Shown here one piece after another: positions 31,411 to 63,373 of a stretch of 64,000 nucleotides of DNA. The notes below the pieces were generated by a model, which searched no databases, was not told where the DNA came from, and saw only the letters and a list, made by a program, of their open reading frames with translations. The translations under genes and the position numbers were made by a program. Numbering within the stretch: the stretch's first letter is position 1; every line of letters begins with the position of its first letter. Source of the stretch: Vairimorpha necatrix (Eukaryota); contig CP142727.1 of the NCBI GenBank assembly GCA_036630325.1, forward strand, positions 806,001-870,000, in the 5' to 3' direction.

Positions 31411-31927
31411 TCATATATATAAAAGAATTTTATTTAATTTTTTACCCCTCTTTTTAGTGGTTTTGTAAAATCTAAACTTCTTATTATAGCTTATTGTGAT
31501 ATTGCAATAGAAAATATAAAGTCAATGAAGAATTTTGACTATCATAGGTGCGTGTACTGTATGTAAATGCATTTTCATTTTAATTCTTTGTTTTGTAAAA
31601 CTCAGTTCCAAAATATCGTCAATTCCGTTTTTTAGAATTTATTTAACCCTTCTAGAAAAATTTTAAAAATAATTGCCAAAAAAAGAAAATGAATATAAGT
31701 GTCATAAATTGAGCTTAAAAGTTCCCAAAATTATCTCATTATAACTATTAAATGTTTTTAGATTAAGTTTACTCCTTATATGTTACTAAAAAGTATTTTT
31801 CAAAATCATGTTTTCTTTTTAAATTCAGTTATCAAAAATGGAAACTCAACAAAATTTAAGGATATAAGACATATTAGCAAACTAAACACTTAGATCCCGT
31901 TTTCAAAAACGGGAAAGCATACGCTAG
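31411..31927 (+). mobile_element. Non-autonomous Helitron unit 1
   Basis: 5' TC after host A; 3' hairpin CCCGTTTT/AAAACGGG then CTAG. Confidence 0.85.
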
Positions 31928-32449
31928 TCATATATATAAAAGAATTTTATTTAATTTTTTACCCCTATTTTTTGTGACTTTGAAATTTCAAAACGATACA
32001 TTTTGTGCCTTTTACGTTAATATATTTTCAAATATAGATTTAATGCTTTAATTTGATAATTTTAAGTGCGTATATTATATATTAAGGCATTTTAATTCAT
32101 ATTATTATTTTTGTAAAACTCAGTTCCAAAATATCGTCAGAATCGTTTTTTAGAATTTATTTAACCCTTCTAGAAAAATTTTAAAAATAATTGCCAAAAG
32201 AAGAAATTGAATATAAGTGTCATAAATTGAGCTTAAAAGTTCCCAAAATTATCTCATATTAACTATTAAATGTTTTTAGATCAAGTTTACTCCTTATATG
32301 TTACTAAAAAGTATTTTTCAAAATCATGTTTTCTCCTTTTTAAATTCAGTTATCCCAAAAATGGAAACTCAACAAAATTCAAGGATCAAAGACATATTAT
32401 CAAACTAAACATTTAGATCCCGTTTTCAAAACGGGAAAGCATACGCTAG
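31928..32449 (+). mobile_element. Non-autonomous Helitron unit 2
   Basis: Direct CTAG|TC junctions at both ends, same hairpin. Confidence 0.85.
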
Positions 32450-32804
32450 TCATATATATGAAAGAATTTTATTTAATTTTTTACCCCTCTTTTTTGTGAT
32501 TTTGTAAAATCTAAACTTCTTATTTTAGCTTATTGTGTCATTGTAATATCAAATATAAACTCATTGAAGGATTTTGACTGTCATAGGTGCGTGTACTGTA
32601 TGTTAATACATTTTGATTTTAATTCTTTGTTTTGTAAGACTCAGTTCCAAAATATCGTCAGAATCGTTTTTTAGAATTTATTTAACCCTTCTAGAAAAAA
32701 ATCACAAAAACATGTACCAATAATGATTTTGAATAAAAGTGTCAAAACTTGAGCTTAGAAGTTCGCAAAATTATTTCAATGAGACTCATATGTGTTTTTA
32801 ACTC

Positions 32805-37583: not shown

Positions 37584-38820
37584 GGTTAAATTGCGATGTT
37601 ACCCCCCCCCACCCCTAAAAAAATAAAAAAAAAGGGGGAAAAATAAAAAAAAGGGGGAAAAATAAAAAAAGGGGGAAAAATAAAAAAAGGGGGAAAAATA
37701 AAAAAAAGGGGAAACAAAATTTATTCAATCAATTCAAAATCAAATTCGGGCGCTAAATCGTAATTTAAAAATGATATATTATCAATCTCAAAAAAGCATA
37801 ACATTCTTTCAAGTAGTGATTCTCTATAAATTAACTTAAAACGAGCTATATAAAGCTTACGAATGAGATTCATTAAAGAACCATGGCAAGTTCCTTCTTT
37901 GCGCAATTCCCTTTTAATTACAGACCACATTCCCTCAATTGTTTGGGTGTGGGCGCCTGTTGTTGGATTTACAAAATTTTGGCTATGATTTACAGTTAAA
38001 TGTAAATAGTTATAATCCGGACATAGTTCCGAAAACCCTTCATAACCCCGCCAACAATCAGTAATAATTGTAGACCCAGGTGCGATTTTTCGTTTTATTA
38101 AATCGACAAGAGTAGCTCTTGATCGATTTTCAACAATTTCGAAAAAAAAAGAATTGCTGTCTCCTCGCACAACTCCACCAACGGCCCAAACTTGGTATTG
38201 ATGGATTCTACCGTTATGGTTTTTACTTTTAACAAGCAATGTCTCGTCTATTTCAACTACGCAATTTAAACCTCCTATGGTTTTGTTTTGAAGGTAGTTG
38301 AAATAGGATAAGAATACAGCGTTATTAAAACGCGTAAACCAGCGAGATACGGTACTACTATCTATATCCAATTCGATAGTAGCCGAAACATTGCTTACCC
38401 CCTTTACCCATTCACACAGCAAAATTAAAAGATCTTCGATATCTAATCTAGAACTTTTAAAAATTCTTTCTTTGTAAATGTTACCTTTGTTTGAGCATTT
38501 TCTCCCATTTCGTCGTAAGTAACAACGATATTTGTCCAAATTATTTCTAATTTTGGTCATGGGCGTCATGCACTTATTGCACATTGGTACCTTTAATATA
38601 TTTTTTTCCCGAAGAAATAAAAATAATTCCTCTTTTTTATATATTAATTTTCTAAAATTTTTTATGTTCATTTTGGGGACATAATTTTTCCCCCTTTTTT
38701 TATTTTTCCCCCTTTTTTTTATTTTTCCCCCTTTTTTTTATTTTTCCCCCTTTTTTTTATTTTTCCCCCTTTTTTTTTATTTTTTTAGGGGTGGGGGGGG
38801 GGTAACATCGCAATTTAACC
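37584..38820 (-). mobile_element. Merlin DNA transposon, intact copy 2
   Basis: Same TIRs as the 20900 copy; 8-bp TSD AAAAATTC. Confidence 0.96.
37721..38671 (-). CDS. Merlin/ISXO2-like DDE transposase, 316 aa
   Basis: Differs from 21040-21990 by a single visible residue (KESIF vs KERIF). Confidence 0.95.
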   Translation of the reverse strand: MNIKNFRKLIYKKEELFLFLREKNILKVPMCNKCMTPMTKIRNNLDKYRCYLRRNGRKCSNKGNIYKERIFKSSRLDIEDLLILLCEWVKGVSNVSATIELDIDSSTVSRWFTRFNNAVFLSYFNYLQNKTIGGLNCVVEIDETLLVKSKNHNGRIHQYQVWAVGGVVRGDSNSFFFEIVENRSRATLVDLIKRKIAPGSTIITDCWRGYEGFSELCPDYNYLHLTVNHSQNFVNPTTGAHTQTIEGMWSVIKRELRKEGTCHGSLMNLIRKLYIARFKLIYRESLLERMLCFFEIDNISFLNYDLAPEFDFELIE

Positions 38821-42432: not shown

Positions 42433-42773
42433 TGTGGTATAATATCTCATACCACATGTTTATGGTGACCAATAGACGATGAAACGCTAATGTGCTTTGA
42501 TACACGTCAAGCATCTCTAATTGTTAGTGGACAGTTCTGAAACACTAATTTCTAATTGGTTACACACAAATATAAATAACGAAATTCATCACTTAAAAAG
42601 AATAAGAATGCCTAAGAACAACAACAGCCGCACTCCAGCTTAGGCCCATGACGCCAATAACAATAAACACTATTCAAATACATTTACACCTACCTTGGGA
42701 ATTCACGGTGCACATAACCGTAGCATTATTGAATGCTTTCTTGCCACTGGCACAATTCCAGGTAAATACGCCA
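42433..42773 (+). mobile_element. Solo LTR
   Basis: TGTGGTAT...CGCCA, 5-bp TSD ATAAC, 3' end similar to the 7458 and 62800 LTRs. Confidence 0.85.
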
Positions 42774-42809
42774 ATAACATAAAAATAAGTAAAATTAATT
42801 AACAGAACG

Positions 42810-44540: not shown

Positions 44541-44891
44541 CTAAAAATAATTAAAAATTATTAATTTGTATGGACACATATTTTTTAAATAACTCACTTA
44601 CCATCCAACAATCAGCCAGTGTGTACTCTCTTAAACAGCACAGATTGAGCAACAGCACACAGTGCATCACGAAAAAAGAGGTAAGGTTTAAGGTTTCCCG
44701 GTAAATTTAACGATTTAACCAACGGATTCAAAACACAACAAACTGACTAGAAGCAGCACGTGAATGCATACATTCACTAGGTAATGTGTTCATTTCAGTT
44801 ACAATGAATACTTTAACTACAAATTTTAGCGAGAATATGCATTTACTGGCAAATGTATACATTGCCTGGGATGTACACTTTAACTGCAACA

Positions 44892-45403
44892 TATATAAAA
44901 GAATTTTATTTAATTTTTACCCCCTTTTATGCGGATTTGAAATTTCTACACTATATATTTTGTGCTTACTACAATCAAACACCATCAAATATAGATTTAA
45001 TGTTCAAATATGATAATTGTAGATGCGTATACTAAATGTTAATACACTTGCATTTTAATTATTATTTTTGTTAAACTCAGTTCCAAAATATCGTCAGAAT
45101 CGTTTTTTAGATTTTATTTAACCCTTCCACAAAAATTCCGAAAACGCTTAACAATCAAAAGTTTCGTGTAATAAGTGCCAAAAGTTGAGCTTAAGAGGTA
45201 TTCAAATTATCCCATTGATATTTATTTGTGTTTTAAACTTTATTTTACTTCTAATTAAATTAAAAATTGTTTTTAAAAATCATACCATTTCCTTTTCAAA
45301 TTTCTCTTCTGGAAAGGAAAATTTGAAAAAAATATTAAGGAGGTACATATTATAAAAACTAAATATTTAAATCCCGTTTTCAAAACGGGAAAGCATACGC
45401 TAG
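44892..45403 (+). mobile_element. Non-autonomous Helitron unit 4 (first bases lost)
   Basis: Collinear with 31411-31927; same hairpin and CTAG|T end. Confidence 0.82.
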
Positions 45404-46364: not shown

Positions 46365-47610
46365 CACCAGGTTGATTCTGCCTGACGTAGACGCTATTCC
46401 CTAAGATTAACCCATGCATGTTTTTGATATGAAAAAATGGACTGCTCAGTAATACTCACTTTATTTAATGTATTAAATTAGTATAACTGCGTTAAAGTGT
46501 AGCATAAGACATATACAGTAAGAGTGAGACCTATCAGCTAGTTGTTAAGGTAATGGCTTAACAAGGCAATGACGGGTAACGGTATTACTTTGTAATATTC
46601 CGGAGAAGGAGCCTGAGAGACGGCTACTAAGTCTAAGGATTGCAGCAGGGGCGAAACTTGACCTATGGATTTTATCTGAGGCAGTTATGGGAAGTAATAT
46701 TCTATTGTTTCATATTGTAAAAGTATATGAGGTGATTAATTGGAGGGCAAATCAAGTGCCAGCAGCCGCGGTAATACTTGTTCCAAGAGTGTGTATGATG
46801 ATTGATGCAGTTAAAAAGTCCGTAGTTTATATTTAAGAAGCAATATGAGGTGTACTGTATAGTTGGGAGAGAGATGAAATGTGACGACCCTGACTGGACG
46901 AACAGAAGCGAAAGCTGTACACTTGTATGTATTTTTTGAACAAGGACGTAAGCTGGAGGAGCGAAGATGATTAGATACCATTGTAGTTCCAGCAGTAAAC
47001 TATGCCGACGATGTGATATGATATTAATTGTATTAGATGATAGAAATTTGAGTTTTTTGGCTCTGGGGATAGTATGATCGCAAGATTGAAAATTAAAGAA
47101 ATTGACGGAAGAATACCACAAGGAGTGGATTGTGCGGCTTAATTTGACTCAACGCGAGGTAACTTACCAATATTTTATTATTCAGAGAAGATTTATAATC
47201 TGAGAATGATAATAGTGGTGCATGGCCGTTTTCAATGGATGCTGTGAAGTTTTGATTAATTTCAACAAGACGTGAGACCCTTTTATTAATAGACAGACAC
47301 AATCAGTGTAGGAAGGAAAGGATTAAAACAGGTCCGTTATGCCCTCAGACATTTTGGGCTGCACGCGCAATACAATAGATATATAATCTTTATGGGATAA
47401 TATTTTGTAAGAGATATTTGAACTTGGAATTGCTAGTAAATTTTATTAAATAAGTAGAATTGAATGTGTCCCTGTTCTTTGTACACACCGCCCGTCGCTA
47501 TCTAAGATGATATGTGTTGTGAAATTAGTGAAAACTACTTGAACAATATGTATTAGATCTGATATAAGTCGTAACATGGTTGCTGTTGGAGAACCATTAG
47601 CAGGATCATA
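46365..47610 (+). rRNA. Microsporidian small-subunit rRNA (~1.25 kb)
   Basis: Starts CACCAGGTTGATTCTGCC; universal motifs GTGCCAGCAGCCGCGGTAA, GTACACACCGCCCGTC, AAGTCGTAACA, GGATCA. Confidence 0.98.
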
Positions 47611-47647
47611 ATAAGTTAAATTTAAATTAATTTTAATTATTTAATTT
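47611..47647 (+). other. Single short AT-rich ITS
   Basis: ~37 bp between the SSU end and LSU start; no separate 5.8S/ITS2. Confidence 0.85.
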
Positions 47648-49241
47648 ACCCACACATGGGATCAATAGGATACCATAACGATGAAGGTCGTAATAGAATA
47701 CGAAAGTATATTATTTACCTAATTAATATATTTATAATGTATTGATAACCCTTTGAACTTAAGCATATCATTAAAAGGAGGAAAAGAAACTAACTAGGAT
47801 TTCTTTAGTAGCAGCGAGTGAACAAGAAATAACCCTCCATTGTAATCCTTAATTGGAGTTGTAAATGGTTTATTCTATTAATTATATTTATAGAGAATAT
47901 TATATTCGTTATTAATAGAATAGAATAATGTACTTGAGTAGAGCTGCTTGGTAGTGCAGTTTGAATAAAGGTAGAATGAAATATCTAAGGTTAAATATAA
48001 TGGTATACCGATAGAAAATAAGTACTGCGAAGGAACTTGTGAAAATGTGTGGAGTTTAGCCTTATTTTTAAGGACCCGTCTTGAAACACGGACCAAGGAG
48101 ATTATAATTATAGCAAGATAAAAATTAAATTTTTTAATCTTTATTAACTTGATAAGTTATAATTATAAGACCCGAAACACAGTGAACTATACATGTTCTG
48201 GTTGAAGATAAGCAATAGTTTATTGGAAGACCATAATCATTCTGACGTGCAAATCGATGATTTAAGATGTGTATAGTGGCGAAAGACCAATCGAACTGTG
48301 TGGTAGCTGGTTCACAGCGAAATGTCTCTCAGGACAGCAGTTATTATTATATAGGACATAGATGTAGGACACTGTTATAGTTTTTTAACTATGAGAAATC
48401 TTTAATTCTATGGAATTATATAAATTAAATTTATATAATGAATCTATTGTATAACTAGTGGGCACATGATTGTAAGAATGATGTGCAAAAAGGGATGAAC
48501 CTTATGAAACATTAAATATTCTAAATAGTAGATATTATACCATAAATATGATGAATACATTGAGACAGTAGGGCGGTTGTTATGGAAGTAGAAATCCGCT
48601 AAGAAACGTGTTACAACGTACCTACCGAATGTATTATTGTATAAAATGGAAGAAGATTACTACTTTTATGAGATGTTTCTAATAAATATTTAGGTAGCTG
48701 TGCAATTTGTTTGTATTGAAGTATATATGTGAGTATATATAGAAGAAACAAATGAGCCGATCTTGGAGGCAGTAACAATATATTTGTATAGATATAGACT
48801 AGGGTTTTCAATTATTATTGAAGTGAATCGGTGTTATTAATAAAAACAAAAAAGATTAATAATTCTTTATTAAATTATTATAAGGTAACTTGATAATGAC
48901 AGTATATTTCAATAAATTTAAGATAAATGAATTAAATTTTATTATAACTATGGATTGTCATGATAAGAAATAGTTAATTATATATACTTGATAAAAATAA
49001 AATAATTTTAACCGTACCTATACCGCATCAGGTGTCTTTGTATCATAACAAATATTTTAAATTAAAGTAAGTAAGGGAATTCGGCAAATTAGATCTGTAA
49101 CTTTGGGATAAAGATTGGCTCTAGCATGCTAGAACTTTTACTATGTAAGGAATCTGACTGTTTATTAAAAACATAGCTTTTTGTATTTACAAGAAGTGAA
49201 TTCTGCCCAGTGCATTTATTGTTAAAGTTGTGTAAGCGAAT

Positions 49242-49294
<53 letters not shown>

Positions 49295-49393
49295 TTAATT
49301 GGTGACGCGCATGAATGGAGCAACGAGATTCCTACTGTCCCTACTTACAATTTTGTGAAACCACGAGACAAGGGAACGGGCTTGTTATTTATC

Positions 49394-49425
<32 letters not shown>

Positions 49426-49860
49426 TTAGTATGTTTTAATAAATATTCGGTATATTGTAGAGAGGTGGGAGAAGTATTGTGAAACCACTAGTATGTTTGA
49501 ATATTTATTTATTAGAATATATGGGGAGTTTGGCTGGGGCGGTACAGCTGTTAAAAAGTAACACAGCTGTCCTAAGGTAGATGAATGATGGATGGTAACC
49601 ATCAGTTTATTATAAGGGAATAAATCTGCTTTACTTTATGCATATGACTGTATTTAGTAGGGAAACCTTGGCCTAGCGATCCCAATTACATTCATTATGT
49701 ATTGGGTGATTGAAAAGTTACCACAGGGATAACTGGCTTGTAGCAGGCAAGCGATCATAGCGACTCTGCTTTTTGATTCTTCGATGTCGTCTCTTCTGAT
49801 CATCGTAGTGTATATGTTACGAAGTGTTGGATTGTTCACCCGGTAATGAGGAACGTGAGA

Positions 49861-49902
<42 letters not shown>

Positions 49903-50125
49903 TAAGTATTTTTGAGTGAACTTTGATAGTACGAGAGGAACTCTAAGTGATGACCACTGGTAGTGCGATTAACTATTAAGTTATGTTGCTTAGCTACGTC
50001 GTTTCGATTAAGGCTGAAAGCCTCTTAAGCCTGAAGCGTAGCTCAAAGATACATTTAGGAGAATACTACTCTTTTAAGCAGAACTGTAAGAATGAAGGTG
50101 TATGCCGACATTTTGAGGTTACTGC
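47648..50125 (+). rRNA. Microsporidian large-subunit rRNA (5.8S-equivalent fused at the 5' end)
   Basis: GAACTTAAGCATATC, GACCCGTCTTGAAACACGGACCAAGGAG, TTAAGGTAGCCAAATGCC, sarcin-ricin loop AGTACGAGAGGAAC; 3' end approximate. Confidence 0.96.
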
Positions 50126-50189
50126 TTTTTTTGTATGTATAGTAGGTGTTGTATACTATAAGAGAGCGTATTTTATGTATAGATTTGGT

Positions 50190-50257
50190 ACCCTTACAAG
50201 AGAGCGTCTACGTCGCGGAGGGCGGGACCGATGTTTTTTAACTAGGTGCAAATTTCT
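50190..50257 (+). ncRNA. HDV-like ribozyme, degenerate copy
   Basis: Same fold as 50616-50684 but with a weakened P1 and L3 TCTACGT; J4/2 GCAAA, P2 AGAGA/TTTCT. Confidence 0.6.
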
Positions 50258-50615
50258 AAGTCTTACCAACCTTCGGCTGCTGGTTGGTAAGTAGGGTCAG
50301 TTATACTCTAGGGGGGAGACCCATTGCTGGTGAGAAGGACACCGTTAACTTTCGAGTAATTCTTCATATTTTTAACCTGGGAGAGGTTGGGCATGATACT
50401 GAAGCTGTATTGTTCCGCTGAACTGAGTCGTGTTCTTAAATGGTGTATTATACCAGGCGTTATGTTTTCGTCAGGTCCGCGAAATATGTAGTCATATTAT
50501 GACTAAGGATGTATCCTTGGGAACAAACTTTTCTCCTACAAGCGAGGCCGTCAAGGTATGCTGGCGTGTAAGCGCACTTATTGATGATTTTTTCTTTATT
50601 AGTGGAGTTTTTGGT

Positions 50616-50684
50616 ACCCTCCACAAGAGAGCGTCCACGTCGCGGAGGGTGGGACCGATGTTTTTTAACTAGGTGCAGATCTCT
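50616..50684 (+). ncRNA. HDV-like self-cleaving ribozyme
   Basis: P1 ACCCTCC/GGAGGGT, P2 AGAGA/TCTCT, P3 GCG/CGC, L3 TCCACGT, P1.1 CC/GG, P4 ACC...GGT, J4/2 GCAGA with candidate catalytic C at 50676. Confidence 0.85.
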
Positions 50685-51112
50685 AAGTCTTACCAACCTT
50701 CGGCTGCTGGTTGGTAAGTAGGGTCAGCTATACTCTAGGGGTGGGAGACCCATTGCTGGTGAGAAGGACACCGTTAACTTTCGAGTAATTCTTCATATTT
50801 TTAACCTGGGAGAGGTTGGGCATGATACTGAAGCTGTATTGTTCCGCTGAACTGAGTCGTGTTCTTAAATGGCGTATTGAACCAGGCGTTGTGTTTTCGT
50901 CAGGTCCGCGAAATATGTAGTCAGAGATGACTAAGGATCTGTTACCTACGGGAACAAATTTTTCTCCTAAAAGCGAGGCCGTTGAGGTATGCTGGCGTGT
51001 AATCGCAATTATTGATGTTTTTCTGGTTGGTGGAGTTTTTGGTGGCTTGGTGGCTTTTCTTCGTTTTGCTGATTCTGTCCTTTTTTACAATAAACAATTT
51101 TATTTTTTTTTT
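50616..51112 (+). mobile_element. Non-autonomous ribozyme-headed element copy 2 (~500 bp, complete)
   Basis: Flanked by direct repeat TTAGTGGAGTTTTTGGT (50599-50615, 51113-51129); ends in AATAAAC plus a T-rich tail like the LINE. Confidence 0.82.
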
Positions 51113-51277
51113 TTAGTGGAGTTTTTGGTGGCTTGGGGGCTGTGGTAGACTACCACCTAGTAATCAGCAATGTAACCAATAATCAGCTTTTAAACAGTTT
51201 CATGTTGAAACTCAAGATTCTCATCAATAATCTAAAACAATAGTTTCATAATAAAATATAAAAGAGAAAATTTTGTA

Positions 51278-52323
51278 ATGAAGGGTAAAGCGCAACAAAC
51301 CAGGAGCAAGCTCAGTAGAGCAAAAAGTGACCACTTTGGTGGTCCAAACAACAATTTAGATACAGAAATGTATTTAAAACAACAAACTAAGCATGTATAT
51401 GCTAATAAAAGTTTCCCAAGTGTTACTTTCAAAAATGATGGAGAAATGAAATATTTTCTCAAGAAAATCAAAATTCTCTCAGAAAGAATTAATAAAAACG
51501 ATATTTTTGACACGTCAAAAAAAGAAAATAACAAAGATCTTCTTGATATTAAAAGATACATATCTAGCACTACTGAATTAGTATTGATTCAGCAGACATA
51601 TTTGGAGCTCTTCCATGATAAGCTAGAAAAACAAAATATCAAATTAAAAAATTTGAAAAAAAATAATCTGATGGATGACAGTAATCAAATTACAGAATCA
51701 ACAAAAAATAAAATTGAGATGATGATAGAGAATCACTCAAAAGAATGTGTAGAACAAAAGGATAATAACTCCGATGTTCCAAATGATACCAGTAGCGAAA
51801 CCCTTCAGTTAGCTACTGGAAACAATGATATTTCTAAATTAGAAATCATCAATGAAGATGTTTTAATTAATGTCAAAAATCTCCCATCTGCTGTCATAAA
51901 TCTCGACACTGCTGTCAAAGTAGAAGAACAAGATAAATTGTCAGAAGATGGCAAAAGAAAATGTATAGATGTTTCAAAGGCATCTACAGATATTATAATT
52001 AATAAAAATATTAAACCAAAAGATGGTAAGCTAGATATAGCTTCCATTAACAAAAAAGCAGTAGTTAGACATCTGTCAACTATCTCTGCTATTATAGCTG
52101 GTAAAAGAAAAGCTCCTAAGAATGGAGTCAAGCTTTTCCATATAAACGAAGACGGATGGACATCTGTCAAACACACATTCAAGCCTAAAGTCCAGATAGA
52201 CTTGAAGAAAAACAGAAGTGGTAAAACCACAGATAAAACCAACTTTAATAGATTTAAATCACTTAAAGTAGAAACTGGTGGCAATGTAAAAGTGCCTAAA
52301 AAGATTAATCATGAAGCTGTAAA
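51278..52323 (+). pseudogene. LINE copy B ORF1, 5' half
   Basis: Highly similar to the first ~340 aa of 52326-53999; ends at the TSD. Confidence 0.85.
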
Positions 52324-52325
52324 AT

Positions 52326-53999
52326 ATGAAGGGTGAGACAAAACAAACCAGGAGCGAGCTCAGTAGAGCAAAAAGTGACCACTTTGGTAGTCCAAACAAC
52401 AATTTAGATACAGAAATGTATTTAAAACAACAAACTAAGCATGTATATGCTAATAAAAGTTTCCCAAGTGTTACTTTCAAAAATGATGGAGAAATGAAAT
52501 ATTTTCTCAAGAAAATCAAAATTCTCTCAGAAAGAATTAATAAAAATGATATTTTTGACACGTCAAAAAAAGAAAATAACAAAGATCTTATTGATCTTAA
52601 AAGATACATATCTAGCACAACTGAATTAGTATTTATTCAGCAGACATATTTGGAGCTCTTCCATGACAAGCTAGAAAAACAAAATATCAAATTAAAAAAT
52701 TTGATTAAAAATAATCTGATGGATGACAGTAATCAAATTACCGAATCATCCAAAAATAAAATCGAGATAATGATTGAGAATCACTCAAAAGAATGTGTAG
52801 AACAAAAGGATAATAACTCCGATGTTCCAAATGATACCAGTAGCGAAACCCTTCAGTTAGCTACTGGAAACAATGATATTTCTCAACTAAAAATCATCAA
52901 TGAAGATGTTTTAATTAATGTCAAAAATATCGTGTCTGCTGTCAAAGCAGAAGAGGAAGATCGATTGTCGGAAGATGGCAAAAGAAAATGTATAGGTGTC
53001 TCAAATGCGTCTACAAATATTGTTATTAATAAAAATATTAAAACAAAAGATGTTAAGCTAGACTTAGCCTCCATTAATAAAAAAGCAGTAGTTAGACATC
53101 TGTCAACTATCTCTGCTATTATAGCTGGTAAAAGAAAAGCTCCTAAGAATGGAGTAAAACTTTACCATACAAATGAAGACGGATGGACATCTGTCAAACA
53201 CACATTCAAGCCTAAAGTCCAGATAGACTTGAAGAAAAACAGAAGTGTCAACCCCACGTATAAATCCAACTTTAATAGATTTAAATCACTTAAAGTAGAA
53301 ATCGGTGGCAATATAAAAGTGCCCAAAAATACTATTTATGAAGTTTTAAGGAGAAAATTTATCATTCCTAAAAAAGATCATGAAAAAAGAAGATCACAAA
53401 ATCGTAAAAAAAATTCTACCCCCAAAATGGAGAACAAAAAAGGTGAGAAATCTCAGAAAAAGGGAAGCTCAGTTTTACCAAAGAAAAACTGGGCTGAAGG
53501 GCTATCAGACGAAGCTCTCATGAAAATTATTAAGGGTGGTAGATACATATCTAAATGCAAGTTCAAGTTAGCTCTTGTGTCTGGACTCGGGTTGGAAGGG
53601 AAGCCCCAATCTAGAGATGCCTGGGCAGCGATGATGGAAGTGCAAAGCAAAGATATTACCCTTATAAAACAATTTAAAGAGTCAGAAGTAGTACTCATGA
53701 TGATTAGAGAAAACGTGTGCCAAAAGGTACTTAAAAAAATTAAAGAAAGATTTGTAGGTTCCGACATCTGCGATGATGAAGAATTCTTTGCTGGCTTCTT
53801 ATCTTTTAATAAATCAATTGTTCTTGGAGAACTACTGAGACTCTCCGGAACACATAAAAAGTTTGTACCACTTGTGAAAGCATGTAGGTACATAACTAAA
53901 GAATTGAATAAAGAAAGTCCCGAATACGATTCCTTTATTTACTTAAAAAAAATGATGGGTGAACCTGCCCGAGAATTCAAGGACTTTAATAATGAATAA
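52326..53999 (+). CDS. LINE ORF1 protein, 557 aa, basic, with a probable coiled coil and possible RRM-like C-terminal domain
   Basis: Long open frame directly upstream of and overlapping ORF2; domain calls are inference. Confidence 0.85.
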   Translation: MKGETKQTRSELSRAKSDHFGSPNNNLDTEMYLKQQTKHVYANKSFPSVTFKNDGEMKYFLKKIKILSERINKNDIFDTSKKENNKDLIDLKRYISSTTELVFIQQTYLELFHDKLEKQNIKLKNLIKNNLMDDSNQITESSKNKIEIMIENHSKECVEQKDNNSDVPNDTSSETLQLATGNNDISQLKIINEDVLINVKNIVSAVKAEEEDRLSEDGKRKCIGVSNASTNIVINKNIKTKDVKLDLASINKKAVVRHLSTISAIIAGKRKAPKNGVKLYHTNEDGWTSVKHTFKPKVQIDLKKNRSVNPTYKSNFNRFKSLKVEIGGNIKVPKNTIYEVLRRKFIIPKKDHEKRRSQNRKKNSTPKMENKKGEKSQKKGSSVLPKKNWAEGLSDEALMKIIKGGRYISKCKFKLALVSGLGLEGKPQSRDAWAAMMEVQSKDITLIKQFKESEVVLMMIRENVCQKVLKKIKERFVGSDICDDEEFFAGFLSFNKSIVLGELLRLSGTHKKFVPLVKACRYITKELNKESPEYDSFIYLKKMMGEPAREFKDFNNE

Positions 54000-56900
54000 A
54001 GTATCTTTGCTAAAGTCCTGTTTTTATAGGAAATTATTTTCTTATAACAAAAGCGATATTTTTAAATCTTTAAATAAAAAAATGCATAATCCAATTGGTT
54101 ATTATAAATTAAAAAATACTTTCAAAACACCAAGGAGACTGAATAGTTTCAAATATTTTTCTATTAGAAAGAATATATGGTGGAAGAAAGTACAAGAAAA
54201 ATATCGTATTGTCAAGATACAAAGAATTCCTTATGGAGTGAAAGATCTCCTCAAAGACTTATGTAAGAAGAAATCTCTTTTGGAGAATTCCATCATTACA
54301 GCAAGAAAGTATAGACGAAGAGACACGTCTTTTACAAAAATAATAGTTGAAAAACTATACGCAAATTCATTGATTAAGACAGTTAAAGCTAAAGGCTTTA
54401 AAGTTTTAAATGATAATAGAAAAGAACTAGAGAAATCTAGTAAAGTAAATAAAAAGACCAAAGAGAACATAAAACTCTTAAGTCTAAACATTAATCATCT
54501 CTCCAATAAGAGAGAAGAACTTGAGTTTCTTCTTAAGAAGGAGAAGCCAGAAATCATGTGTTTACAGGAAACTTGGAGACAATCTACAAGACCTTTAAAA
54601 CTTGAAAAATACACTACAGTTGAAACACCTAGTGGTGGAAAAAATAAACCAGGATTAATAACTCTGGTTAGAAATAATGGAGCGATCAGATGTTCCAAAA
54701 AAGGAACAGACTCAAATATCCTGCAAACCGTAGTTGAGTTTAGTTCCGCAGGCAAATGGATTAAGTATTTAGTCTTAAATGTCTACATACCACAAGACAA
54801 GGATCTCAAGAGGGAGACCTTGGCCAGATTACTTTCTCTTTTAGAAAAAGAGAATTTCAGAAATAACTATAGTGAGATCATAGTGATGGGAGATATGAAT
54901 ATGCAGAGTTCTAGTCTCAAGAAAAAACTAAATGTAGTTGGTTTGCCAGTTACAATAAAATATAACAGCAACGATGGTACAAGGATCCTCAAAGATGGTA
55001 AAAGATCTAAGAGGAAAATTGATACCATCTTTCGACTAAAAAGTAATGATAATGAGAAGATCATTATATCCAAGTCTTGGGTATTAAGTGATCACTTAGT
55101 GCTCAAAAGAAAAATTAAACTTGCCGTTGATAAGATCTCAGATCAACTAGTTTATGATAAGAAGATGCTGGAAAATCTAAAAGTGATTAAAAAGCTTAAA
55201 AGGAAGTTGAGTAATCAACAATTAAACATGAATAATCTTCCTGAGATTATTCAAAAAGTTTGTACATCGTTAAAGATTTACAGAAAGAAAAAAGTCCATA
55301 CTGGACTTACAATGAGATGGAGATATTTAAAAGTCTTCAAAGAAAGACGTCTAGCAGCAAGAGCTGTTATGAAAAATTACAACGAAATCAACTCAATTAG
55401 ATTCGAATATCTCAAAAAGAGAGTAGACGAAACTAAAAAGTTGATTCGCAAAGATAGATCGAAACTTTGGGCTTTAAGAGGAATAAAGCTCTTTAAAAGT
55501 AATAGATCCCGAGAATTCTGGCAATGGCTGAAAAATAGAAGTGTTTCCATTCGTTTGGATCAAGTGGCTCTAATTGACCACAATAAGCTTCTTCAGACTT
55601 GCCGAGCAAAGAAGCTAGAAATAGCGAATAAATTTTACGCCGAATTAGCGTCAGAGAATGATATAGATGTCAATGCCTATGATAAAGTAGATCTTGTTGA
55701 TCTTCCCCCAGAGATAACAGATGAAGAATTTCTATCCGCACTGAATAAATGTGGAAATAACAAAGCAGCCGGTCCTGATGAGATTCCAACCGAGCTATAC
55801 AAACACTTACTGACTAGAGCAGTAGAAGATAAATTCTTTAAATTCATGCTACATGAATTTAATAAATATATTTGTGGAAATAGTCCTCCTGAATACTGGA
55901 GCATGGCAAACATGATTTGCCTCCACAAAAAAGGAGATGAGACAGATCTAAATAACTATAGGGGAATCTCCTTAATTAACACAATTAGTAAGATCTATCT
56001 CAAGATAATAAATGACAGGTTAACTCAATTTGTCGAAGAACAAGATATACTCTCTAGATACCAAGCAGGATTCCGAGCAGGTGAAGAGTGTATGAATCAG
56101 ATTACATCTCTACTAGAAATAGTGAGAAGAAGAGAATTCAGAGGCCTGAACACAATAATGTGTTTTATTGACTTTGAAAAAGCTTATGATAATGTAAGTC
56201 ATGACTTATTATTTGAGAAGCTTACAAAACTTAATATCCCATTGTATTTAATCAATACAATAAAGGATATTTATAAATATACCACCATGCGTGTGAAAAT
56301 TGGTGGTGACACGTCAAGTGGCTATAGCTACAGAAAAGGAGTGAGACAAGGGTGCCCTTGTTCTCCAATGCTGTTCAATTTATTTATCAATGATATTTTT
56401 GACGGCATAGAAGGAGTTTTGATCCCAAGATCAAATACGAGAGTTCCGGGACTGATGTTCGCAGATGATATTGTTGTCTTCGGAAACAACATTGATGATC
56501 TTAATAATAAGATCAATAGAATTTCTAATTGGGCGGTTAATAACAGAATGAAGATTAACTGCACAAAAAGCGGAGTATTAGAATGGAATGCTCATTCTAA
56601 CATACAAGAATTCCGAAGTTTGTATTCTCTCAGTACAGACTTTGGTGTGATTGAAGAAGTCACTGAATACAGATATCTAGGTGTCTTAATTAAAAGAAAC
56701 ACGCTAGAAGAACATTTGGTCAAAGACGCAGCAATGCGTGGCAAGAAAGCCTTAGACGCCTTGATGCCCAAGTTGATGAATAATAGCATCAACCTTTACT
56801 TCAAGGCGATCTTAATCAAATGTGTACTAGTACCCACACTAATGTATGGTAGTGAACTGTGGGGAATGTCAAGTACAAGAGCAGGTAAGATTAACAGGAT

Positions 56901-57684
56901 CTTGAGAAAATCTATCAGAATGATATTCAAAAGAGTATTAGTTCCACTAGATAGAGTAATGGACGAGTTCAGTATCGAACGAATTCATATACAAGCAGCT
57001 TTAAGTAGATTTAGAGCATACAACAAGTGGAAACACAATAAGACAATCATATCGGATATAATTGCAATAAATCCGAAAGAAAGAAAAACTACCTGGTGTT
57101 CAAGAACACAAAGATGGTTAAAACGATTTGTCGGCGACGAATACGAATCAAGTGATAGTAAATTTATCACTTCAAAAATAATTGATGTACTAAGAAGTCG
57201 AAGAACTCTAAATACTTCCTTAGCTGCATCAATAGCAAACCAATATGACATAAGAAATTCACAAATAAAATATGTCATGAACAAAATAAATAATAGAAAA
57301 ATTAGAACATATACTAGATTGAGATGTAATCTAGTAAAGTGGTCCTCAGCAATAGCATATTCAAAAAGAATACCAATGAGTTATAGAAACAAATGCTTTT
57401 TGTGTGATGGACCACAAGAAAATTTAGAACACTTTCTGCTGGAGTGCGTCTGTTTAACTGACATTAGATCATCTTTTGAAAATAAACTGCCTCTACTGAC
57501 TTGTTCAAAAACAAATATCCGAGATAAAACCAAGCAACTCCTTGGTAATAAAATCGGACTAAAAAATAACCCAGATAAGATAAAAGAACTTTGTTGCACT
57601 ATAGAGTTCTTAGATAGAATGGTTGTCTCTAGAAGAATTATGATTAATAACAAACTGAAGGAGATAACGAAACAAAATAATTAA
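53992..57684 (+). CDS. LINE ORF2: AP endonuclease, reverse transcriptase, C-terminal CCHC finger
   Basis: LSLNI, CLQET, MGDMN, KIDT, LSDH (APE); NYRGISL, QAGFR, FIDFEKAYD, GVRQG, FADD, YRYLG (RT); CFLCDGPQENLEHFLLEC. First ATG at 53992 (the track starts at GTG 53959). Confidence 0.96.
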   Translation: MNKVSLLKSCFYRKLFSYNKSDIFKSLNKKMHNPIGYYKLKNTFKTPRRLNSFKYFSIRKNIWWKKVQEKYRIVKIQRIPYGVKDLLKDLCKKKSLLENSIITARKYRRRDTSFTKIIVEKLYANSLIKTVKAKGFKVLNDNRKELEKSSKVNKKTKENIKLLSLNINHLSNKREELEFLLKKEKPEIMCLQETWRQSTRPLKLEKYTTVETPSGGKNKPGLITLVRNNGAIRCSKKGTDSNILQTVVEFSSAGKWIKYLVLNVYIPQDKDLKRETLARLLSLLEKENFRNNYSEIIVMGDMNMQSSSLKKKLNVVGLPVTIKYNSNDGTRILKDGKRSKRKIDTIFRLKSNDNEKIIISKSWVLSDHLVLKRKIKLAVDKISDQLVYDKKMLENLKVIKKLKRKLSNQQLNMNNLPEIIQKVCTSLKIYRKKKVHTGLTMRWRYLKVFKERRLAARAVMKNYNEINSIRFEYLKKRVDETKKLIRKDRSKLWALRGIKLFKSNRSREFWQWLKNRSVSIRLDQVALIDHNKLLQTCRAKKLEIANKFYAELASENDIDVNAYDKVDLVDLPPEITDEEFLSALNKCGNNKAAGPDEIPTELYKHLLTRAVEDKFFKFMLHEFNKYICGNSPPEYWSMANMICLHKKGDETDLNNYRGISLINTISKIYLKIINDRLTQFVEEQDILSRYQAGFRAGEECMNQITSLLEIVRRREFRGLNTIMCFIDFEKAYDNVSHDLLFEKLTKLNIPLYLINTIKDIYKYTTMRVKIGGDTSSGYSYRKGVRQGCPCSPMLFNLFINDIFDGIEGVLIPRSNTRVPGLMFADDIVVFGNNIDDLNNKINRISNWAVNNRMKINCTKSGVLEWNAHSNIQEFRSLYSLSTDFGVIEEVTEYRYLGVLIKRNTLEEHLVKDAAMRGKKALDALMPKLMNNSINLYFKAILIKCVLVPTLMYGSELWGMSSTRAGKINRILRKSIRMIFKRVLVPLDRVMDEFSIERIHIQAALSRFRAYNKWKHNKTIISDIIAINPKERKTTWCSRTQRWLKRFVGDEYESSDSKFITSKIIDVLRSRRTLNTSLAASIANQYDIRNSQIKYVMNKINNRKIRTYTRLRCNLVKWSSAIAYSKRIPMSYRNKCFLCDGPQENLEHFLLECVCLTDIRSSFENKLPLLTCSKTNIRDKTKQLLGNKIGLKNNPDKIKELCCTIEFLDRMVVSRRIMINNKLKEITKQNN

Positions 57685-57772
57685 TATAGCTTAATTAAAA
57701 AAAATGAAGATCTAGAATTAGAAGAAAGAAGTGTTATATTATTAACAAAAAGACTTATATTTATTTATATTT

Positions 57773-58085
57773 GACCTGGGAGAGGTCGGGCATGATACTG
57801 ATGCTGTATTGTTCCGCTGAACTGAGTCGTGTTCTTAAATGGTGTATTGAGCCAGGCGTTTTCGTTTTTCATCAGACCCATGAAAGTGGGTCTCTAGTCA
57901 TATTATGACTAAGGATGTATCCTATGGGAACAAACTTTTCTCCTACAAGCGAGGCCGTTAAGGTATGCTGGCGTGTAAACGCAATTATTGATGATTTTCT
58001 GGTTGGTGGAGTTTTTGGTGGCTTGGTGGCTTTTCTTCGTTTTGCTGATTCTGTCTTTTTACAATAAACATTTTTATTTTTATTT
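57773..58085 (+). repeat. Structured 3' UTR block shared by both LINE copies and both short elements
   Basis: Four copies starting at 50374, 50803, 57773 and 62517, with conserved stems. Confidence 0.88.
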
Positions 58086-58101
58086 ATCATGAAGCTGTAA
58101 A

Positions 58102-58750
58102 GAGAAAAGATAACATTCCTAAAAGAGATCATGAAAAAAGAAGATTACTAAATCAGAAAATAAATTTTACAAAAAAAACGAAGGACAGAAAAAATGAGAA
58201 ATGTCAACAAAAAAGAAGGCCAGTTTTACCAAAGAAAAACTGGGCCAAAGAGCTAACTGAAGAAGCTCTTATGAAAATTATAAAGGATGGTAGAATTATT
58301 TCCAAATGTAAGTTTAGGCTAGCTCTTGCTTCTGGACTCGGATTGAAAGGGAAACCTCAATCTAGAGACGCTTGGGCAGCCTTAGCTGATGTGGAAAATA
58401 AAGATATACCACTTATAAAACAATTTAAAGACTCGGAAGTAGTACTTCTGATGATTAGAGAACACGTGTGCCAAAAGGTACTAAGCAAGATTAAAGAAAA
58501 GTTCGGAGGTTCTAATATCTGCGATGAAGTTAATTTCTTCATCGACTTTTTGTCTTTAACAAAAACAACTGTTCTAGGAGAGCTGCAAAGACTCTCTGGA
58601 ACGCATAAAAATTTTGTACCGCTTGTAAAAGCATGTTGGTACATAACTAAAGAATTAAATAAAGAAAAGCCAAACCATGGTTCTTTCATTTATTTAGAAA
58701 ATATGATGGGTGAGCCTGCCCGAGAATCTAAGGACTTTAACAATGAATAA
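58102..58750 (+). pseudogene. LINE copy B ORF1, 3' half
   Basis: KRKDNIPKRDHEKRR...PKKNWA...DFNNE, collinear with copy A ORF1. Confidence 0.85.
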
Positions 58751-61700
58751 AGTATCTTTGTTAAAGTCCTGTTATTATAGGAAATTATTTTCCTATAACA
58801 AGAGTGATATTTTCAAATCTCTAAATAAAAAAACGCATAATCCAATTGGATTTACTCAGATTAAAAATACTTTCCAAACGACAACGAGATTGAATAGTCT
58901 CAAGTATTTTTTCATTAGAAAGAATATGTGGTGTAAGAAAGTACAAGAACAATATTGTATTGTCAAGATACAAAGAATTCCTTATGGAGTGAAAGATCTC
59001 CTCAAAGACTTATGTAAGAAGAACTCTCCTTTGGAGAATTCCATTATTACAGCAAGAAAATATAGACGAAGGGACACGTCATTCACGAAAATAATAGTTG
59101 AAAAACTATACGCAAATTTATTGATTAAGACACTTAAAGCTTAAGGCTTTAAAGTTTTAAATGATAATAGAAAAGAACTAGAGAAATCTAGTAAAGCAAA
59201 TAAAAAGACCAAAGAGAACATAAAACTCTTAAGTCTAAACATTAATCATCTCTCTAATAAGAGAGAAGAACTTGAGTTTCTTCTTAAGAAGGAAAAACCA
59301 GAAATTATGTGTTTACAAGAAACTTGGAGACAATCTACAAGACCTTTGAAACTTGAAAAATACACTACAGTTGAAACACCTAGTGGTGGGAAAAATAAAC
59401 CAAAATTAATAACTCTGGTTAGAAATAATGGAGCGATTAGATGTTCCAAAAAGGCACCGACTCAAATATTCTGCAAACTGTAGTTGAGTTTAGGTCAGCA
59501 GGCAAATGGATTAAGTATTTAGTCTTAAATGTCTACATACCACAAGACAAGGATCTCAAGAGAGAAGTCTTGGCCAGATTATTTTCTCTTTTAGAAAAAG
59601 AGAATTTCAGAAATAACTATAGTGAGATCATAGTGATGGGAGATATGAATATGCAGAGTTCTAGTCTCAAGAAAAAATTAAATGTAGTTGGTTTGCCAGT
59701 TACAATAAAATATAACAGCAAAGATGGTACAAGGATTCTCAAAGATGGTAAAAGATCTAAGAGGAAAATTGATACCATCTTTCGACTAAAAATTAATGAT
59801 AATGAGAAGATCGTCATTCTAAAGTCTTGGGTATTAAGTGACCACTTAGTGCTCAAAAGAAATATTAAACTTGCCGTTGATAAGATCTCAGATCAACTAG
59901 TTTATGATAAGAAGATGCTGGAAAATGCAAAAGTGATTAAAAAGCTAAAAAGGAAGTTGAGTAATCAACAATTAAACATGAATAATCTTCCTGAGATTAT
60001 TCAAAAAGTTTGCACATCTTTGAAGATTTACAAAAAGAGAAGAGTCCATACTCGACTTACAATGAGATGGAGATATTTAAAAGTCTTCAAAGAAAAACGT
60101 CTATCAGCAAGAACTGTTATGAAAAATTACAATGAAATCAACTCAATTAGATTCGAATATCTCAAAAAGAGAGTTGACGAAATAAAAAGTTGATTCGCAA
60201 AGATAGATCGAAACTTTGGGCTTTACGAGGAATAAAGCTCTTTAAAAGCAATAGATCCCGAGAATTCTGGCAATGGCTGAAAAATAGAAGTGTTTCCATT
60301 CGTTTGAATCAAGTGGCTCTAATCGACCACAATAAGCTTCTTCAGACTTGCCGAGCAAAGAAGCTAGTATAGCGAATAAATTTTACGCCGAATTAGCGTC
60401 AGAGAATGATTTAGATGTCAATGTCTATGATAAAGAAGATTTTGTTGATCTTCCCTCAGAGATAACAGATGAAGAATTTCTATCCGCACTATAGATTTGC
60501 GTAAATAACAAAGCTTCCGGTCCTGATGAGATTCCAACCGAGCTATACAAACACTTACTGACTAGAGCAGTAATAGATAAATTCTTTAAATTCATGCTAA
60601 ATGAATTTAATAAATATATTTGTGGAAATAGTCCTCCTGAATACTGGAGCATGGCAAACATGATTTGCCTTCACAAAAAAGGAGATGAGACAGATCTGAA
60701 TAATTATAGGGAGATCTCCTTAATTAACACAATTAGTAAGATCTATCTCAAGATAATAAATGACAGATTAACTCAATTTGTCGAAGAACAAGATATACTC
60801 TCTAGATACCAAGCAGGATTCCGAGCAGGTGAAGAGTGTATGAATCAGATTACATCTCTATTAGAAATAGTGAGAAGAAGAGAATTCAGAGGCTTGAACA
60901 CAATAATGTGTTTCATTGACTTTGAAAAAGCTTATGATATTGTAAGTCATGACTTATTATTTGAAAAGCTTACAAAACTTAATATCCCATTGTATTTAAT
61001 TTATACAATAAAGGATATTTATAAGTATATCACCATGCGTGTGAAAATTGGTGGTGACACGTCAAGTGGCTATAGCTACAGAAAAGGAGTGAGACAAGGG
61101 TGCCCTTGTTTTACAATGCTGTTCAATTTATTCATCAATGATATTTTTGACGGCATAGATGGAGTTTTGATCCCAAGATCAATAAGAGAGTTCCGGGACT
61201 GATGTTCGCAGATGATATTGTTGTCTTCGGAAACAACATTGATGATCTTTGTAATAAGATCAATAGGATTTCTAATTGGGCGGTTAATAACAGAATGAGG
61301 ATTAACTGCATAAAAAGCGGAGTATTAGAATGGACTGCTCATTCTAACATACAAGAATTCCGAAGTTTGTATTGTCTCAATACAGACTTTGGTGTGATTG
61401 AAGAAGTCACTGAATACAGATATCTAGGTGTCTTAATTAAAAGATTAACGCTAGAAGAACACTTGGTCAAAGACGCAGCAATGCGTGGTATGAAAGCCTT
61501 AGACGCCTTGATGCCTAAGTTGATGAATAATAGCATCAACCTATACTTCAAGGCGATCTTAATAAAATGTGTACTAGTACCCACATTAATGTATGGCAGT
61601 GAATTGTGGGGAACGTCAAGTACAAGAGCAGGTAAGATTAACAGGATCTTAAGAAAATCTATCAGAATGATATTCAAAAGAGTGTTAGTCCTACTAGATA

Positions 61701-62429
61701 GAGTAATGGACGAGTTCAGTATTGAACGAATCCATATACAAGCAGCTCTAAGTAGATTTAGAGCATACAACAAGTGGGAACCCAATAAGACAATCATATC
61801 GGATATAATCTCAATCAATCCGAAAGAAAGAAAAACTACCTGGTGTTCAAGAACACAAAGATGGTTAAAACGATTTGTCGGCAACGATTATGAATCAAAT
61901 GATAGTGGATTTTCAATACAAAAATAATTGATGTACTAAGAAGTCGAAGAACTCTAAATACTTCTTTAGCTGCATCAATAGCAAACCAATATGACATAAG
62001 AAATTCACAAATAAAATATGTCATGGATAAAATAAATAATAGAAAAATTAGAACATATACTAGATTGAGGTGTAATCTAGTAAGGTGGTCCTCAGCAATA
62101 GCAAATTCAAAAAGAATACCAATGAGTTATAAAAGCAAATGCTTTCTGTGTGATGGACCACAAGAAAATTTAGAACATTTTCTGTTAGAGTGCGTCTGTT
62201 TAACTGACATTAGAACATCTTTTGAAAATAAACTGCCTCTACTGACTTGTTCAAAAACAAATAACCAAGAAAAAACCAAACAACTCCTTGGTAATAAAAT
62301 CGGACTAAAAATAACCCAGATAAGATAAAAGAACTTTGTTGCACTATAGAGTTCTTAGATAAAATGGTTGTCTCTAGAAGAATTATATTTGAAAAGAAAC
62401 TTAAAGAGATAACAAAACAGGATAATTAA
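58743..62429 (+). pseudogene. LINE copy B ORF2, multiple frameshifts and stops
   Basis: Six ORF fragments tile the 53992-57684 protein. Confidence 0.92.
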
Positions 62430-62799
62430 TATGAATAATTAGAAACAATAAAATCTAGAAATAGAAGAAAGAGATGTTATTTTACTAACAAGAAAACTTT
62501 TATAATGAGTATATTTGACCCGGGAGAGGCCGGGCATGATACTGATGCTGTATTGTTCCGCTGAACTGAGTCGTTTTCTTAAATGGTGTATTATGCCAGG
62601 CGCTTTCGTTTTTCATCAGACTCATGAAATTGGGTCTCTAGTCAATTATGACTAAGGATGTATCCTATGGGAACAAACTTTTCTCCTACAAGCGAGGCCG
62701 TTAAGGTATGCTGGTGTGTAAACGCAATTATTGATGATTTATCTTTATTGGTGAGATTTTGGTGGCTTTTCTTCGTTTTGTTGATATTGTATTTTTTTC

Positions 62800-63373
62800 T
62801 GTGGTATAATGGACCATACCACATGATTTCTAAAAACCAATAAATACTAAAACGCTGATGCTTCTTCGGAACGAACAGCTATGGTCGACTATTATTGGTC
62901 AGCCAAATCTTATTTCTTTCTATTGGTTACTATGTAATATAAATAGAGAAATTCCATGAACAACATGGTACAACATCAGAACGCAAACCAACACTCTTCC
63001 TTCTACAAATCAGATAAACAAAACTCTTTTCATAACAATAAACAATCCTTTCCCTTTAACTCCTTTAACTCCGGTCTTCTTGGCACCTCAACCCGTAGCA
63101 TCATTGAATGCTTCCTTGCCACAGGCAAGCTTCCCGGTAAACACGCCAATTTGAGCTCAAATGGCATTAAAGGTAAAAAACCAGTTACAGCTGATAAAAA
63201 ACATCATTCCGCGGAATTTTAAATAATAGTTGAAGGAACAGACGTACCCATCATCGAACATATACTCAAAATATTTAATATTAAAACCGACCCAACAACT
63301 GCGGGTCTCAAAGAGTTCGAAACTCCTTCTGAGTATAATAAGTGGAATGACACATAAGCCGGTCAAATCTACC
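62800..63373 (+). mobile_element. 5' LTR (62800-63148) and start of gag of a Gypsy element
   Basis: TGTGGTAT...CGCCA as in the solo LTRs; ORF 62956-63222 crosses the LTR end and resembles the 11617 gag. Confidence 0.78.

Follow-up and report, generated by a model that had tools for sequence, protein, structure and literature searches.

The 64,000-nt stretch of Vairimorpha necatrix contig CP142727.1 analysed here (positions 806,001 to 870,000; hereafter the window) carries one microsporidian ribosomal RNA gene (rDNA) unit on its plus strand, as located by an Rfam scan. A retroelement array lies 3' of this unit and consists of two short non-coding units and two nested copies of a long interspersed nuclear element (LINE) with an apurinic/apyrimidinic-type endonuclease and a reverse transcriptase (APE-RT; Table 1). 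The two short units, copy 1 and copy 2, form one family of short non-coding retroelements. They are built from a predicted ribozyme resembling that of hepatitis delta virus (HDV-like, 69 nt), a hairpin module of about 111 nt, and an end of about 317 nt that derives from the 3' untranslated region (UTR) of the LINE.

Short elements downstream of the rDNA unit

A previous reading of the sequence alone had described a non-coding unit of about 500 bp bounded by a direct repeat of about 17 bp, with its first base being the first base of ribozyme helix P1, and a second copy starting at the same nucleotide. All of these features were recovered. Copy 2 (50616-51112) is flanked on both sides by the exact 17-mer TTAGTGGAGTTTTTGGT, which has just two occurrences in the window (50599 and 51113). 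The unit's first base, A50616, directly follows the upstream repeat and is also the first base behind the predicted ribozyme cut site. When up to two mismatches are allowed, the 15-nt core of the repeat has four matches in the window, against 0.23 expected, and the two inexact ones (51029 and 58005) represent the homologous site in LINE-type 3' UTRs. Both of these sites have a G where the two repeats flanking copy 2 have an A. As the flanking 17-mers thus share a variant base that is missing from both other 3'-UTR sites, they point to one common target site. Removing copy 2 together with one repeat restores the 3' tail of copy 1.

Copy 1 is 92.5% identical to copy 2 and has the same first base. 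It differs in J4/2 (CAAA, versus CAGA in copy 2) and in the first pair of the ribozyme (A1/C35 versus A1-U35). Within the window, the ribozyme and the middle module are confined to the two short units, and the middle module matches nothing else there. No target-site duplication was found for copy 1, as the window contains no second copy of its rDNA flank: a 14-mer from this flank, searched with up to three mismatches, gave 12 matches against 13.6 expected, and the original is the only exact one. At its other end, three extra G separate copy 1 from the outer LINE's 5' end. Although this is speculation, copy 1 may be the product of a template jump from LINE RNA onto short-element RNA.

The distance between the array and the large-subunit (LSU) rRNA depends on where the rRNA ends. 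The Rfam LSU match extends to 50247, and therefore into the ribozyme of copy 1. In this run-on alignment (308.4 bits), the end that overlaps the ribozyme contains many non-canonical pairs and the 140 nt before it have low posterior probability. When the sequence is cut at 50189, so that the ribozyme is excluded, the alignment places helices H100/H101, with high posterior probability, within about 50057-50127 and stops at 50134 with 313.2 bits. Because the ribozyme-free alignment scores higher and places H100/H101 confidently, the LSU 3' end most likely lies near 50134-50140, with copy 1 about 55 nt further downstream. The earlier description of the element as standing just downstream of the LSU rRNA is therefore right as to its position, and is refined here in that copy 1 does not abut the rRNA. 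An LSU rRNA ending at 50189, directly against the ribozyme cut site, was also considered and is unlikely, though perhaps not negligible: the one argument for it is the likeness of 50181-50189 to the consensus terminus, and the 50134 end scores higher.

The Rfam LSU model appears to over-extend by about 110 nt at this locus (50135-50247), with its terminal helices forced onto the GC-rich P3/P1 region. Automatic covariance-model rRNA annotation at such loci would hide a ribozyme-headed element. The spacer between the rRNA and copy 1 contains a 7-bp hairpin and, at 50160-50169, 30 nt upstream of copy 1, the 10-mer AAGAGAGCGT, which spans J1/2, P2 and P3 in the ribozyme. This 10-mer occurs three times in the whole window, in the two ribozymes and in the spacer. 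The possibility that the spacer is an older, decayed ribozyme was rejected, as no significant similarity extends beyond the 10-mer and 132 of 500 shuffles score equally high.

Table 1. Features of the rDNA unit and the retroelement array (window coordinates)
Feature	Position	Strand	Remarks
SSU (small-subunit) rRNA	46365-47611	+	Rfam SSU_rRNA_microsporidia, 1055.8 bits
LSU rRNA	47726-50134	+	Rfam LSU_rRNA_eukarya, 1341.7 bits; probable 3' end
Spacer, presumed 3' external transcribed spacer (ETS), ~55 nt	50135-50189	+	Between likely LSU end and copy 1
Copy 1 (short1)	50190-50615	+	3' tail interrupted by copy 2, resumes at 51130-51142
Copy 1 weakened ribozyme	50190-50257	+	Lacks one P1 base; differs from copy 2 at 50209, 50223, 50251, 50254
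Copy 2 upstream target-site duplication	50599-50615	+	Exact 17-mer
Copy 2 (short2), non-coding unit	50616-51112	+	Starts at A50616, ends in T-run
HDV-like ribozyme fold, 69 nt	50616-50684	+	Predicted cleavage 5' of A50616; putative catalytic C50676
P1 (7 bp)	50616-50622/50644-50650	+	
P2 (5 bp)	50626-50630/50680-50684	+	
P3 (3 G-C pairs)	50631-50633/50641-50643	+	
L3, UCCACGU	50634-50640	+	
P1.1 (2 bp)	50635-50636/50651-50652	+	GG at 50651-50652
P4	50654-50656/50672-50674 plus 50660-62/50667-69	+	Weak, interrupted
J4/2, CAGA	50676-50679	+	Directly before P2 3' strand UCUCU, 50680-50684
Middle module, 111 nt	50685-50795	+	10-bp hairpin 50689-50698/50709-50718
LINE 3'-UTR-derived tail, ~317 bp	50796-51112	+	T-rich run at end
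Copy 2 downstream target-site duplication	51113-51129	+	Exact 17-mer
Outer LINE, older, decayed	51140-52323 plus 58102-62828	+	5' UTR and ORF1 (open reading frame 1) start; broken ORF2; joined to copy 1 tail
Inner LINE	52324-58085	+	5'-truncated just before ORF1 ATG
Inner LINE ORF1	52326-53999	+	
Inner LINE ORF2	53959-57684	+	Exo_endo_phos and RVT_1 domains (APE and RT)
Inner LINE 3' UTR	57685-58085	+	
Inner LINE target-site duplication, 16 bp	52308-52323 and 58086-58101	+	Exact

The HDV-like ribozyme fold

The sequence-only reading had proposed a complete HDV-like double pseudoknot at the start of copy 2, and all of its helices were found in the places it had given, with 23 of 23 pairs being standard. 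When the two window copies are compared, 95.6% of cells pair in this register, versus 38-56% when the pairing partners are slid by one to three columns. The nested helices P1, P3 and P4 make up the minimum-free-energy structure of the 69-mer, the energy of which is not unusual (z = -0.15).

To assess the fold statistically we used a published HDV-ribozyme descriptor (PMC6326823) with the first pair left free, applied to both strands and to dinucleotide-preserving shuffles. As given in that source, the descriptor fixes G1-Y35, U19, C23 and G24 (U-G reverse wobble), C20-G37, C21-G36 and a J4/2 of the form C-R-R-A. Segment 50616-50684 fits every fixed position in identical numbering except G1; copy 2 has A1-U35 here, the A-U pair that had already been pointed out at position 1. 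This segment is the one site that the descriptor finds in the window, the minus strand giving none. Among 1576 shuffles there were no full matches and a single match to the P1/P3/L3/P1.1 core. Since the published descriptor yields no full match in the shuffles, the HDV-like fold is statistically real and more than chance. Two descriptors of our own carry less weight. The strict one (0 of 150 shuffles) had been built after the candidate was seen and was replaced by the published descriptor for that reason, and the looser one was uninformative, with five loci in the window versus a mean of 3.04 in 150 shuffles and chance matches in low-complexity sequence.

The earlier reading had put forward scans with ribozyme descriptors and with Infernal as a check. 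The published descriptor matches 50616-50684, as described above; the Rfam models of HDV-like families stay below threshold. The mammalian CPEB3 ribozyme model (RF00622) aligns partially, in the P3-L3-P1' region, at 50621-50645 over model positions 17-42, with 13.8 bits and E=2 against a gathering score of 35. CPEB3, which has a near-identical P3-L3-P3', is the sole Rfam family besides the rRNAs with a match in the element; unlike the element, the CPEB3 ribozyme is intronic and single-copy and does not reside in a mobile element. The Rfam covariance models for HDV-like families do not encode pseudoknots and cover narrow families.

Searches in wider sequence collections added no relatives. The 19-nt core of the ribozyme was found at 65 metagenomic loci, none of which (0/65) was related, all being in GC-rich contigs (0.57-0.76) that lack the upstream P1 strand, and a 24-nt ribozyme pattern gave no match in a genome-contig collection or in a viral-contig collection.

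Contigs from four public sequencing runs (X1-X4) were aligned to 49900-50640, using the contigs only and not their depth. Three of the four runs (X1, X2 and X4) have the letters of copy 2 at 50209, 50223, 50251 and 50254, and X3 does not cover the ribozyme. Based on these shared letters, the intact fold is the common form and copy 1 is decayed. One X1 contig (49900-50314) and one X4 contig (50148-50298) have the same rDNA flank joined to the ribozyme; the X1 contig shows at this flank a 5-nt repeat of the first bases of the element, followed by an intact P1 strand. In a further X1 contig, only the ribozyme part (50196-50270) is present, in diverged form and between dissimilar flanks. In two X2 contigs the internal positions 50386 and 50418 (the latter with two extra letters) are joined to 50616 or 50618, and these joints would represent further copies starting at the first base of P1 and inserted in other copies. 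Other X2 contigs contain 5'-truncated copies behind T-rich tails, as expected of LINE-driven copying.

The LINE partner, a proposed cycle and its alternatives

The end of the short element had been attributed to the 3' UTR of the neighbouring LINE over its last 310 bp or so, and this origin was confirmed over about 317 bp. Positions 181-496 of copy 2 (50796-51111) share 88% identity with 57766-58085 and 79% with 62510-62798, both of which are LINE 3' UTRs downstream of ORF2. Among the relatives of ORF2, Nosema granulosis supplies the best named one, a LINE-1-like reverse transcriptase (51%), and the best unnamed ones reach 60-61%. Duplications of 15-17 bp accompany the short element and one of 16 bp the inner LINE, both in T-rich tails of earlier copies, and this agreement in size supports mobilisation by the same machinery.

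The short element thus combines a ribozyme fold at its 5' end, the 3' end of an autonomous LINE, the lack of an open reading frame and the insertion signature of the partner LINE, the features that characterise short internally deleted elements (SIDEs). Since the LINE copies in the window carry no ribozyme, it is either of the hybrid type or derives from a LINE subfamily not seen here. Its head contains a T6 run; no tRNA was found, and the segment 50100-51200 has no likeness to Rfam tRNA, 5S or 7SL models at E values up to 10. These two observations together argue against a short interspersed nuclear element (SINE) transcribed by RNA polymerase (Pol) III.

Several further observations concern the LINE family itself. 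The tails are T-rich and (TTTTTA)n-like on the sense strand rather than poly(A) (51100-51112 and 58066-58085), and new copies at contig ends of run X2 often stand directly behind such tails. What looks like a duplicated ORF1, or like LINEs in tandem, is one 5'-truncated LINE inserted in ORF1 of an older, decayed full-length LINE. The 8-mer CTGTGGTA occurs five times on the plus strand (51140, 62799, 63373, 42432 and 11509), with a minus-strand variant near 7803. Behind each occurrence comes a short stem that ends in ACCAC, and the sites appear to be the 5' termini of the LINE and of a repeat family of about 570 bp (62800-63370, with copies at 7458-7803 and 42433-42775), so that this family and the LINE have a 5'-terminal hairpin in common.

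Based on the fold, the junctions and the shared tail, we consider it likely that the short element is a promoterless parasite of the LINE, similar to a hybrid SIDE, with a 5' end made by self-cleavage of read-through transcripts. The cycle would begin with transcription of a copy within a longer read-through RNA; some 55 nt behind the LSU rRNA, this could plausibly be the Pol I pre-rRNA. The ribozyme would then cut directly 5' of A1, as the fold and the uniform 5' junctions suggest, leaving the whole ribozyme on the element RNA. [quoted passage not shown] Finally, a full-length cDNA would rebuild the ribozyme at the new locus, and junctions starting at +1 are indeed seen. A LINE-dependent parasite of this kind had been proposed from the sequence, and the parts of the proposal that can be examined in silico (the fold, the 3'-UTR tail, duplications of the same size and copies that start at the first base of P1) all held.

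A number of findings weigh against this interpretation. The cleavage-site pair, A1-U35, departs from the G1-Y35 that is fixed in HDV-like ribozymes, and cleavage may be slow owing to A1. In its copy 2 context the fold meets competing pairings: a GUGGAG lying upstream can form a helix with part of P1, and another helix is an alternative to P2/P3. Cleavage is described as falling when bases upstream lengthen P1 or compete with it (PMC3185411). No Rfam HDV-like family reaches threshold in the window, permissive scans adding, beyond the rRNAs, the partial CPEB3 match and matches at chance level. Within the window, the LINE copies carry no 5' ribozyme. The X2 joints comprise 25 and 23 letters in contigs aligned at 85% likeness and are rated as weak. 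In the LSU tail, X1 and X4 hardly differ from the window and may not amount to independent evidence.

Some of these findings would also fit an element that is mobilised by the LINE while A1-U35 leaves its fold inactive or cleaving too slowly, with the fold surviving as the relic of a ribozyme in an ancestor. The common 5' end would then come from the transcription start of a master copy or from another nuclease. In CPEB3 ribozymes, G1A is reported to lie behind most cases of lost activity and nearly abolishes cleavage, which in the rat falls from 92% to 3% (PMC8233481). The decayed copy 1 shows that the fold can be lost, and compensatory covariation is absent, the two window copies differing by G-U-compatible changes or by lost pairs. 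Nevertheless, we hold such a relic to be unlikely. Apart from position 1, copy 2 preserves every fixed position of the core, with the same letters in X1, X2 and X4, and at several junctions the element starts at exactly the nucleotide predicted for the cut. If the 5' end came from transcription starting in a master copy, new copies that lack an upstream promoter would also have to be accounted for, with the T6 run in the head speaking against Pol III.

The copy next to the rDNA could alternatively have become a fixed, domesticated part of it. In yeast, the endonucleolytic entry for 3'-ETS trimming and Pol I termination is provided by a protein endonuclease. With Pol I transcribing past the LSU 3' end, a ribozyme cut about 55 nt past the LSU rRNA would launch the parasite RNA and at the same time provide such an entry, and rDNA units with the insertion would stay functional, unlike those with R2 or R1 insertions. 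We regard this as rather improbable.

Quite improbable, too, is the idea that the 180-nt head belongs natively to the rDNA spacer (3' ETS), its fold serving pre-rRNA 3' processing or termination, and that the mobile copies are chimeras of ETS and 3' UTR produced by the LINE reverse transcriptase from a read-through or template-jump product. The head follows the rDNA flank at an identical junction in the window, X1 and X4, as this idea would predict, but common descent may account for this shared junction, given how little X1 and X4 differ from the window across the LSU tail. Copy 1 lacks a duplication of its own, and the three extra G where it meets the LINE 5' end look like the product of a template jump; R2 template jumps onto other RNAs have been documented (PMC3414825). 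The X1 contig in which a diverged ribozyme part stands alone between unlike flanks is harder to reconcile with a native spacer, and the idea would still require precise cutting at A1, the activity predicted for the ribozyme.

That the two units result from tandem duplication, unequal crossover or an assembly artefact, rather than from retrotransposition, is hardly credible despite their head-to-tail order and shared repeats, since copy 2 has a full 3' tail and T-run followed by the second 17-bp target, as expected of insertion into the tail of copy 1, the copies are 7.5% different and the same sequences recur in contigs of other runs. Judged from its sequence, the arrangement at 50616-51129 is an insertion and not an unequal crossover. 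We therefore retain the self-cleaving LINE parasite as the preferred interpretation.

Comparison with known elements and further repeats

The combination of a ribozyme with a LINE 3' UTR is known from R2/R1 SIDEs and from L1Tc/NARTc, while the microsporidian case has not yet been reported. The sequence-only reading knew of no description in microsporidia, and our full-text literature searches likewise found no report of self-cleaving or HDV-like ribozymes in this group. In a review that tabulates transposable elements found in rDNA, microsporidia appear with miniature inverted-repeat transposable elements (MITEs) only (PMC10946416).

The R2/R1 hybrid SIDEs of Drosophila are described as having an R2 ribozyme directly before the R1 3' UTR and the 14-bp duplication of R1, with ribozymes that cleave in vitro (Eickbush & Eickbush 2012, PMC3414825). 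They are interspersed with R1 in rDNA tandem arrays and presumed to be cut from an rRNA co-transcript (PMC3414825). The microsporidian element resembles these SIDEs, as described there, in being short and non-coding, in having an HDV-like ribozyme (here the fold only) upstream of an APE-type LINE 3' UTR, in showing the typical duplication of its partner, and in lying in or at the rDNA in head-to-tail arrays with the LINE. It differs in that its partner is an L1/Tad-like microsporidian LINE and not R1, and in that there is no fixed 28S site, the copies lying about 55 nt behind the LSU rRNA and inside the tails of other copies. A derivation from R2/R1 with a fixed 28S insertion is accordingly at odds with the APE-RT partner and the location outside the LSU gene. 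Other differences from the published SIDEs are the unique 111-nt module between ribozyme and tail, the A at +1 and the lack of a visible ribozyme-bearing donor LINE; SIDE cleavage is shown in vitro, whereas here it is predicted.

In trypanosomatids, the L1Tc, NARTc and SIDER elements carry the L1TcRz ribozyme in their first ~70-77 nt, and cleavage is reported to define +1 and to free the RNA from co-transcripts (PMC3185411, PMC3383444, PMC4035085). According to the same sources these 77 nt double as an internal promoter, and the autonomous LINE has them as well. The shared trait, as far as these accounts go, is an HDV-like ribozyme that occupies the very start of non-autonomous derivatives of an APE-type LINE family; in contrast to L1Tc/NARTc, the LINE copies seen here are without a ribozyme and nothing suggests a promoter. 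The microsporidian element would thus work like the hybrid SIDEs and L1Tc/NARTc, outside their lineages.

The R2 5' ribozyme is described as a double pseudoknot with a P1 of 6-7 bp, a P2 of 5 bp or more, a P4 that varies, conserved L3, P3 and P1.1, and a catalytic C (PMC3774820). The same features are found in the fold of the short element, and the role assigned to the R2 ribozyme in that account is release from the rRNA co-transcript (PMC3774820). Unlike the system described here, R2 uses a restriction-like endonuclease and is inserted within the 28S gene, which it inactivates (PMC3774820). Many R2 ribozymes are also reported to cut upstream in the 28S sequence (PMC3774820), whereas the predicted cut in the short element falls at its first base.

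If the ribozyme is active, ribozyme-processed non-LTR (long terminal repeat) elements and parasites that join a ribozyme to a 3' UTR would reach the Microsporidia, a fungal-related phylum with reduced genomes. An active ribozyme would also offer a natural HDV-like example with A at +1, and hence a test of the G1 rule in vivo, and a case of LINEs and their parasites persisting next to, and not inside, rRNA genes.

The window contains other repeats away from the array. Three tandem units of about 520 bp lie at 31416-32850, with a further partial copy at 44891-45144, about 1.2 kb upstream of the SSU gene, and may be spacer or subtelomere-type repeats. Long direct repeats with 91-100% identity, 3.8-16.7 kb apart (20921-21220/37602-37901, 2442-2956/17735-18247 and 11510-11740/15340-15570), suggest segmental duplications or additional dispersed repeats. 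Lastly, arrays of a 19-nt T/C-block unit, in which a T-run is followed by C5, occur at 22001-22083 and 38682-38802 and have a G-run at their end.
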